This document shows positions 3,033 through 5,415 of a stretch of DNA of 64,000 nt, piece after piece (position 1 is the first letter of the stretch; the number at the start of each line of letters is the position of its first letter). The stretch is taken from NCBI RefSeq assembly GCF_003334385.1, contig NZ_QOWN01000023.1; one strand, written 5' to 3'. Origin of the DNA: Escherichia coli. GTDB taxonomy: Bacteria; Pseudomonadota; Gammaproteobacteria; Enterobacterales; Enterobacteriaceae. A program made the translations under genes and the position numbers. Below the pieces are notes generated by a model. It worked only from the letters and a program-made list of their open reading frames with translations, had not been told where the DNA came from and searched no databases.

Positions 3033-3396
<364 letters not shown>

Positions 3397-3463
3397 AACA
3401 GGTACAAACGCCACGATAAAAAAATGGCACTGAAGGTTAAATACCCGACTAAATCAGTCAAGT

Positions 3464-3535
3464 AAATAGTTGACCAATTTACTCGGGAATGTCAGACTTG
3501 ACCCTGCTATGCAATACCCCCACTTTTACAATAAA
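3464..3535 (+). promoter_or_regulatory. iscR promoter region with IscR type-1 operator-like sites
   Basis: ATAGTTGACCAATTTACTCGGGAAT followed by a second TTGACC-containing block and TACAAT (-10-like) just upstream of iscR; matches remembered IscR autoregulatory sites. Confidence 0.55.
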
Positions 3536-3573
3536 AAACCCCGGGCAGGGGCGAGTTTGAGGTGAAGTAAGAC

Positions 3574-4062
3574 ATGAGACTGACATCTAAAGGGCGCTAT
3601 GCCGTGACCGCAATGCTTGACGTTGCGCTCAACTCTGAAGCGGGCCCGGTACCGTTGGCTGATATTTCCGAACGTCAGGGAATTTCCCTTTCTTATCTGG
3701 AACAACTGTTTTCCCGTCTGCGTAAAAATGGTCTGGTTTCCAGCGTACGTGGACCAGGCGGTGGTTATCTGTTAGGCAAAGATGCCAGCAGCATCGCCGT
3801 TGGCGAAGTAATTAGCGCCGTTGACGAATCTGTAGATGCCACCCGTTGTCAGGGTAAAGGCGGCTGCCAGGGCGGCGATAAATGCCTGACCCACGCGCTG
3901 TGGCGTGATTTGAGCGACCGTCTCACCGGTTTTCTCAACAACATTACTTTAGGCGAACTGGTTAATAACCAGGAAGTGCTGGATGTGTCTGGTCGTCAGC
4001 ATACTCACGACGCGCCACGCACCCGCACACAAGACGCGATCGACGTTAAGTTACGCGCTTAA
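3574..4062 (+). CDS. iscR: Fe-S cluster regulator IscR (Rrf2 family)
   Basis: 162-aa ORF; N-terminal HTH; cluster-ligand cysteines in [13 protein letters not shown]. Confidence 0.97.
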
Positions 4063-4074
4063 TAAAAAGAATTC

Positions 4075-4136
4075 AGAATCAGGCCGGAGTGCTAAATACT
4101 CCGTAAACACGGTCGTACATCCAGCCGGTAGCCTGA
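4075..4136 (+). other. Structured iscR-iscS intergenic RNA element (long-range dyad AATCAGGCCGG ... CCGGTAGCCTGATT with nested hairpins)
   Basis: Dyad symmetry read directly; consistent with the intergenic structure reported to stabilise the iscR fragment after RyhB-dependent cleavage of the isc mRNA. Confidence 0.45.
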
Positions 4137-4173
4137 TTCCTTGCATTGAGTGATGTACGGAGTTTATAGAGCA

Positions 4174-5388
4174 ATGAAATTACCGATTTATCTCGACTAC
4201 TCCGCAACCACGCCGGTGGACCCGCGTGTTGCCGAGAAAATGATGCAGTTTATGACGATGGACGGAACCTTTGGTAACCCGGCCTCCCGTTCTCACCGTT
4301 TCGGCTGGCAGGCTGAAGAAGCGGTAGATATCGCCCGTAATCAGATTGCCGATCTGGTCGGCGCTGATCCGCGTGAAATCGTCTTTACCTCTGGTGCAAC
4401 CGAATCTGACAACCTGGCGATCAAAGGTGCAGCCAACTTTTATCAGAAAAAAGGCAAGCACATCATCACCAGCAAAACCGAACACAAAGCGGTACTGGAT
4501 ACCTGCCGTCAGCTGGAGCGCGAAGGTTTTGAAGTCACCTACCTGGCACCGCAGCGTAACGGCATTATCGACCTGAAAGAACTTGAAGCAGCGATGCGTG
4601 ACGACACCATCCTCGTGTCCATCATGCACGTAAATAACGAAATCGGCGTGGTGCAGGATATCGCGGCTATCGGCGAAATGTGCCGTGCTCGTGGCATTAT
4701 CTATCACGTTGATGCAACCCAGAGCGTGGGTAAACTGCCTATCGACCTGAGCCAGTTGAAAGTTGACCTGATGTCTTTCTCCGGTCACAAAATCTATGGC
4801 CCGAAAGGTATCGGTGCGCTGTATGTACGTCGTAAACCGCGCGTACGCATCGAAGCGCAAATGCACGGCGGCGGTCACGAGCGCGGTATGCGTTCCGGCA
4901 CTCTGCCTGTTCACCAGATCGTCGGAATGGGCGAGGCCTATCGCATCGCAAAAGAAGAGATGGCGACCGAGATGGAACGTCTGCGCGGCCTGCGTAACCG
5001 TCTGTGGAACGGCATCAAAGATATCGAAGAAGTTTACCTGAACGGTGACCTGGAACACGGTGCGCCGAACATTCTCAACGTCAGCTTCAACTACGTTGAA
5101 GGTGAGTCGCTGATTATGGCGCTGAAAGACCTCGCAGTTTCTTCAGGTTCCGCCTGTACGTCAGCAAGCCTCGAACCGTCCTACGTGCTGCGCGCGCTGG
5201 GGCTGAACGACGAGCTGGCACATAGCTCTATCCGTTTCTCTTTAGGTCGTTTTACTACTGAAGAAGAGATCGACTACACCATCGAGTTAGTTCGTAAATC
5301 CATCGGTCGTCTGCGTGACCTTTCTCCGCTGTGGGAAATGTACAAGCAGGGCGTGGATCTGAACAGCATCGAATGGGCTCATCATTAA
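4174..5388 (+). CDS. iscS: Cysteine desulfurase IscS (PLP-dependent)
   Basis: ORF 4150..5388; start at ATG 4174 ([13 protein letters not shown]) for 404 aa; PLP-lysine motif SFSGHK; active-site Cys in [10 protein letters not shown]. Confidence 0.97.
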
Positions 5389-5415
5389 TCGGTATCGGAA
5401 TCAGGAGAATTTATA

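Follow-up and report, generated by a model that had tools for sequence, protein, structure and literature searches.

The iscR and iscS genes of Escherichia coli are the first and second cistrons of one operon, and the spacer between them raises the question of what structure it carries, on which molecule that structure acts and whether it belongs to a known family. The window analysed here was a single stretch of E. coli DNA of 64,000 nt. Within it the stop codon of iscR ended at 4062 and the ATG of iscS occupied 4174–4176, giving a spacer (4063–4173) of 111 nt, the length stated in an earlier note made from this DNA. Positions 4040–4200 were identical to E. coli K-12 MG1655, and K-12 is the organism in which the RyhB mechanism and the iscR fragment were studied, according to excerpts of PMC12533949, PMC11572966 and PMC7038943. 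The parts of the locus are listed below in window coordinates; the percentages of paired cells, and the numbers of pairs changed on both sides, refer to an alignment of 48 distinct enterobacterial sequences.

3574–4062, + strand: iscR coding sequence (162 aa), first cistron, the stabilised part of the mRNA in the mechanism discussed below (ORF list; MG1655 annotation of the identical sequence).
4063–4172, + strand: full match to Rfam RF01517 'iscR stability element', covering nearly the whole 111-nt spacer (138.1 bits, model positions 1–110 of 110).
4070–4074, + strand: AAUUC, 5′ side of the outermost Rfam helix, pairing with GAGUU (4160–4164) and overlapping the Shine–Dalgarno sequence there; weakly supported (73.3 % of cells paired, no pair changed on both sides).
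4076–4084, + strand: 5′ arm of the long-range dyad, GAAUCAGGC, complementary to 4131–4139 at 9/9 positions (99.3 % of cells paired, 3/9 pairs with compensatory changes on both sides).
4085–4103, + strand: hairpin 1, stem CGGAGU (4085–4090)/ACUCCG (4098–4103), loop 4091–4097 (82.5 % of cells paired, 5/6 pairs changed on both sides).
4107–4129, + strand: hairpin 2, with A4107, C4108 and CGG (4110–4112) paired with CCGGU (4125–4129) (79.6 % of cells paired, 5/5 pairs changed on both sides).
4113–4124, + strand: 12-nt loop of hairpin 2, UCGUACAUCCAG, nearly invariant in 31/48 sequences.
4131–4139, + strand: 3′ arm of the long-range dyad, GCCUGAUUC; one-sided changes all give G·U on the + strand.
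4142–4157, + strand: hairpin 3 of the Rfam model, a weak four-pair stem (90.6 % of cells paired, no pair changed on both sides; probability 0.17–0.90 depending on context).
4147–4177, + strand: iscS translation initiation region, with the Shine–Dalgarno sequence GGAG (4159–4162), the start codon (4174–4176) and the predicted RyhB site.
4174–5388, + strand: iscS coding sequence, second cistron, the degraded part of the mRNA in the same mechanism (ORF list; MG1655 annotation).

The spacer contained a perfect inverted repeat, GAATCAGGC at 4076–4084 and GCCTGATTC at 4131–4139, complementary over 9/9 bp with 46 nt between the arms; the 64-kb window held a single instance of the pattern GAATCAGGC-N20–50-GCCTGATTC, whereas 100 shuffles gave none. 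The 76-nt core was predicted to fold at −26.6 kcal/mol, compared with −15.2 ± 2.7 kcal/mol for dinucleotide shuffles (z = −4.21, 0/200 as good), and the whole spacer at −31.5 kcal/mol (z = −2.84). These values bear out the description of the spacer as strongly structured, and those for the core are the values of an extragenic palindrome with a stable RNA stem-loop. The earlier note had also described a long-range dyad with hairpins nested inside it; the repeat and two enclosed hairpins were recovered, although the end given for the dyad, 4136, falls 3 nt short of 4139. The motif CCGG...CCGG, which had been read as a continuation of the dyad, consists of bases that are present but are not mutual partners in the supported fold, in which C4084 closes the dyad, CGG (4085–4087) opens hairpin 1 and CCGG (4125–4128) closes hairpin 2. 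Partition-function folds were made for four mRNA contexts of 118 to 1000 nt. Base-pair probabilities for the dyad and both hairpins were 0.92–0.99 in the two shorter contexts and 0.4–0.7 in the two longest, with values of up to 0.99 for hairpin 1. The outermost Rfam helix had a probability of 0.39 when the spacer was folded by itself, falling to 0.00 in longer contexts.

The family to which the structure belongs was identified by comparison with Rfam. The + strand match to RF01517 (iscRS, iscR stability element) had an E value of 1.3e-37 and far exceeded the gathering score of 40, the consensus structure of the family was the same as the predicted minimum-energy fold, and the match lay in the iscR–iscS intercistronic spacer on the sense strand, which is the position of the family. 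The likeness therefore comprises a full-length match, the same helices, the same genomic place and a sequence identical to that of the family-defining K-12; no difference was found in the element itself, the outermost helix and hairpin 3 of the model being without covariation support here. The structured spacer is very probably the iscR stability element already known from the iscRSUA mRNA, acting in RyhB-triggered decay, and nothing in the sequence evidence contradicted this explanation. Both the element and its mechanism are already catalogued, and their confirmation here is no new biology.

Conservation of the pairing was followed in 80 iscR loci taken from GTDB species genomes and in a further 84 metagenome loci, the latter collected with a search pattern confined to the iscS ribosome-binding region, outside the structured part. 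In a MAFFT alignment of 14 GTDB genomes the Rfam structure was paired in 85.2 % of cells, compared with 35–48 % for slid controls, and the long-range dyad was paired in 100 % of cells. The corresponding values for alignment A3, which comprised the 48 distinct enterobacterial sequences, were 86.9 % and 33–49 %, with a covariation score of 0.202 (slid controls, 0.05–0.09); none of 500 shuffles reached the A3 values. Conservation of the ribosome-binding region in A3 is partly selected, since part of the alignment was collected by a pattern located there, whilst the structured core is unselected. Covariation across enterobacteria, which the earlier note had proposed as a check on the structure, was present in the dyad and in hairpins 1 and 2, so that these consensus helices of RF01517 are both formed and covarying; none was detected for the outermost Rfam helix or hairpin 3 in either the 14-genome or the 48-sequence alignment. 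The compensatory changes in the dyad were A–U to G–C at two pairs and G–C to A–U at one. When each of the 48 sequences was folded separately without constraint, 47 retained the outer stem and 42 the pair of nested hairpins. Every one of the 28 one-sided changes seen in the dyad produced G·U on the + strand; read from the opposite strand or as DNA they would be A·C mismatches, and it is therefore the sense RNA on which selection acts.

Hairpin 1 (4085–4103) was a hotspot of polymorphism within E. coli, with at least five alleles (loci L083–L087), exemplified by GGAGTGCTAAATACTCC in K-12 and GGGGCGTATCGCGCTCC in O145:H28, and the stem was kept in all of them. The 80-nt core was only 80–90 % identical to that of K-12 in 1893 of 5425 E. 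coli genomes, an unusually high divergence for a single-copy E. coli locus. Three small ORFs that overlap the region, at 3983–4153 (+ strand), 4051–4146 (− strand) and 4079–4207 (− strand), were rejected as coding because the length steps in hairpin 1 were not multiples of three and the substitutions tracked pairing rather than codons.

The strand on which the changes are tolerated bears directly on whether the palindrome might work at the DNA level, as a protein site or cruciform, or in an antisense transcript rather than in the sense mRNA. The reverse strand did fold well too (−28.5 kcal/mol, z = −3.0), but its predicted inner fold differed from the covarying hairpins, the 28 one-sided substitutions in the dyad would all be A·C on that strand or in DNA, and no promoter-like site was found on either strand; such a role is extremely improbable. 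It is also very unlikely that the structure serves as a transcription terminator or attenuator, or as an RNA thermometer controlling iscS in the manner of Yersinia IscS-1 (RF02783). The latter family has matches at the corresponding position in Yersinia, Serratia, Photorhabdus, Dickeya, Hafnia and Brenneria, and the iscS Shine–Dalgarno sequence was predicted to be mostly paired in all folded contexts (unpaired probability 0.01–0.30). RF02783 had no match in 3200–4400 at E ≤ 10, however, and was rejected for this window on that ground. The GC-rich hairpin with a following T run that defines an intrinsic terminator was not seen: the spacer held no terminator-like site, the stem was followed by CTTGCATTGAG with no T run, and full-length iscRSUA mRNA is visible on published northern blots (excerpts of PMC11572966). 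An internal promoter was likewise rejected, none being found in the scan.

A different origin is implied by the term REP secondary structure, which is applied to this structure in excerpts of PMC7038943 and which would make it an ordinary REP/BIME copy lying by chance between iscR and iscS. True REPs were indeed found only 650 nt upstream, at 3060–3430, and the dyad arms contain ATCAGGC and GCCTGAT, sequences that make up the two halves of the stem in Z-type REPs as well, but the order of the arms (ATCAGGC 5′, GCCTGAT 3′) is opposite to that of the REP stem. Moreover, a blastn search of 5426 complete E. coli genomes (word size 11, E ≤ 10) placed the 80-nt core at exactly one site in 5425 of them. 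The REP tail motif ATCAGGCCTAC (at most one mismatch) occurred seven times in the window and not once in the spacer, and naRNA4, an Rfam model derived from REPs, matched at 3200–3430 and had no match in the spacer at E ≤ 10. Membership of the REP family was rejected, the element being neither repetitive nor of REP consensus, and a chance REP copy is highly unlikely as an explanation. Given the single copy and the missing consensus, the label 'REP' describes a mode of action and not a family; the MG1655 RefSeq record lists no repeat features and is hence mute on REP status. In its mode of action the iscR element does resemble the REP/BIME 3′ stabilisers (e.g. malE–malF), which are extragenic GC-rich palindromic RNA structures downstream of a cistron and which protect the upstream mRNA segment, leading to discoordinate expression within an operon (excerpts of PMC7038943). 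It differs from them in its single copy, lack of REP consensus, reversed arms and three-helix architecture, a REP being a single imperfect hairpin.

The REPs upstream formed a cluster in the trmJ–iscR intergenic region (3060–3430), where ATCAGGCCTAC was found at 3066, 3157, 3248 and 3339, exactly 91 bp apart. A match to naRNA4 (RF02564) at 3275–3346 was above threshold, and there were weaker matches on both strands.

The mechanism by which the iscR stability element would act is attributed to Desnoyers et al. (2009; EMBO J 28:1551) in excerpts of PMC12533949, PMC11572966 and PMC7038943. According to the same excerpts, the iscR portion is stable owing to strong intergenic secondary structure, and dependence on RyhB and RNase E, together with a stable iscR fragment, is reported for K-12 (also in excerpts of PMC8300815). 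In the sequence studied here, the 9-bp long-range helix around two hairpins would form a compact, stable module of about −26 kcal/mol that ends approximately 20 nt upstream of the iscS Shine–Dalgarno sequence. Under iron scarcity RyhB would pair with the iscS ribosome-binding region, translation would be blocked and RNase E recruited, and the iscSUA part would then be degraded. The iscR fragment that survives would then have the folded module as its 3′ end, and the module would block further nuclease attack. IscR would thus still be produced while the Isc machinery is lowered, because the module shields the iscR fragment. By analogy with REP hairpins, we infer that this protection would operate through a block of 3′-to-5′ exonucleases. 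The proposal in the earlier note that the structure fits protection of the iscR mRNA when RyhB triggers cleavage at iscS is upheld by the RF01517 match, the identity to MG1655, the literature and the covariation.

The position of RyhB pairing was predicted with the RyhB sequence of MG1655. The best windowed duplex across 3540–5400 lay at 4147–4177 (−22.9 kcal/mol) and paired GAGCAAUG (4169–4176) with RyhB nt 40–47, plus two weaker blocks. The next-best site reached −22.5 kcal/mol, and with other sites within 0.4 kcal/mol the duplex energy alone does not prove the RyhB site. The prediction agrees, nevertheless, with excerpts of PMC11572966 and PMC8300815, which place RyhB base-pairing in the iscR–iscS interval, at the ribosome-binding region of iscS. 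A full-length RNAduplex comparison of RyhB with the region gave end-to-end pairing without meaning, which was no better than that of shuffles. GAUGUACGGAG was invariant in alignment A1, which had not been selected on GAUGUACGGAG.

Among the iscR loci compared, the length and stability of the spacer tracked taxonomy, as follows.

Vibrionaceae, Alteromonadales and most other non-Enterobacterales in the set: spacer 3–34 nt, unstructured.
Aeromonas, Zobellella and Ferrimonas: spacer 51–75 nt, modest folds of −13 to −21 kcal/mol.
Yersinia, Serratia, Hafnia, Dickeya, Proteus and relatives: spacer 48–86 nt, weak fold.
Escherichia, Citrobacter, Pluralibacter, Pseudocitrobacter, Superficieibacter, Cedecea, Shimwellia and related genera: spacer 105–242 nt, module present.

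When 40 loci were scanned with Rfam, 28 of which came from outside the genera concerned, matches to RF01517 were found only in the Escherichia/Citrobacter/Cedecea/Shimwellia-type group. The element was thus found only in genera of the Enterobacteriaceae in the strict sense, and seems to have been added in that family alone. The stretch GUGAUGUACGGAG...GAGCAAUG, which comprises the Shine–Dalgarno sequence, the start codon and the predicted RyhB site, was common to most of the Enterobacterales spacers examined, with or without the module, and for this reason the module would seem to have been added later, upstream of a ribosome-binding/RyhB region that is older.

The IscS-1 thermometer RF02783 of Yersinia occupies the same iscR–iscS junction and shares the downstream GUGAUGUACGGAG...GAGCAAUG, but it is another family, and the spacers there are 48–86 nt long, with weak folds of −5 to −17 kcal/mol and no dyad module. 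RF02783 matched the 3′ end of iscR and the spacer with 62–212 bits in loci L011, L015, L016, L017, L020, L022, L024 and L034, which belong to Yersinia, Serratia, Photorhabdus, Dickeya, Hafnia and Brenneria. Pantoea/Erwinia loci (L027, L029, L033, L036 and L037) carried unrelated GC-rich hairpins at the same position, with spacer minimum free energies of −29 to −42 kcal/mol; these Erwiniaceae hairpins suggest that stable structure at the iscR–iscS junction was acquired more than once.

In some E. coli strains and in members of other genera the spacer was lengthened to ~240 nt by an additional palindromic insertion, ~130 nt long, located after the iscR stop codon and ahead of the element; the loci were L085 (E. 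coli N96), L128, L139, L002 (Citrobacter werkmanii), L088, L122, L138 and L159. The core of this insertion, ATGTAAGCTCC..GG.GATTC, probably resembles the ERIC/IRU repeat, to judge from the ERIC1R and ERIC2 primer sequences. A different palindrome, of ~65 nt, lay between the iscR stop codon and the element in the L093-type sequences, which we take to be probably from Klebsiella.

The loop of hairpin 2 offers a possible connection between the iscR stability element and iscS. From its sequence, the loop UCGUACAUCCAG may pair as a pseudoknot with GAUGUACG (4152–4159), which lies 5′ of the iscS Shine–Dalgarno sequence, although we regard this interaction as rather doubtful. The complementarity was 8/8 in K-12 and extended over at least 7 nt in 31 of the 48 distinct sequences, the loop reading UCGUACAUCCAG in 18 sequences and UCGUACAUCAAG in nine. 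The loop was nearly invariant whilst hairpin 1 and the linker varied freely in the same sequences, a contrast that is partly circular as the subset was picked by a 7-mer in the loop. The complementarity grew to 9 nt with either of two different loop substitutions, C to A (L093-type sequences) or U to C (L035). The partner side never varies, which places the loop pairing beyond the reach of covariation. Among the 48 sequences, the loop complementarity was absent from Cedecea, Siccibacter, Mangrovibacter and the L021-type variants.

A second 8-mer in K-12, ACUCCGUA at 4098–4105, complements the adjacent UACGGAGU, and the element contains a split reverse complement of the 12-mer GAUGUACGGAGU. Seen from the iscS ribosome-binding region, the 12-mer GATGTACGGAGT (4152–4163) has the two halves of its complement at 4098–4105 (ACTCCGTA) and, in the loop of hairpin 2, at 4114–4121 (CGTACATC). 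Two separate 8-mers of this kind occurred in 3 of 20000 shuffles, in a post hoc test made after the pattern had been noticed. On the basis of this complementarity, the split complement could be a pseudoknot or a relic of an inverted duplication. The second 8-mer was confined to Escherichia, and the anti-Shine–Dalgarno complementarity of the 3′ arm of hairpin 1, not being conserved outside that genus, was set aside as probably incidental. Overall, the element showed modestly raised complementarity to the ribosome-binding region (median z = −1.4), an effect limited to one clade. Pairing between loop 2 and the Shine–Dalgarno side was not found in those papers citing Desnoyers et al. (2009) that were consulted. 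If true, the pairing would tie the stability module to the iscS ribosome-binding region and could tune iscS translation or RyhB access; it could instead fix where the protected 3′ end forms. This loop interaction is the sole lead here that might be new.

The additions made to the known picture of the element are modest, namely that neither its sequence nor its copy number is that of a REP, that it appears to be limited to the Enterobacteriaceae in the strict sense and that one of its loops is conserved and complementary to the ribosome-binding region. The iscR stability element shows in textbook fashion how a small RNA divides one operon mRNA into a stable and a degraded part. In its cluster-free form IscR activates the Suf system. 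By means of the split, the production of IscR would be kept up while the Isc machinery is shut down under iron starvation.
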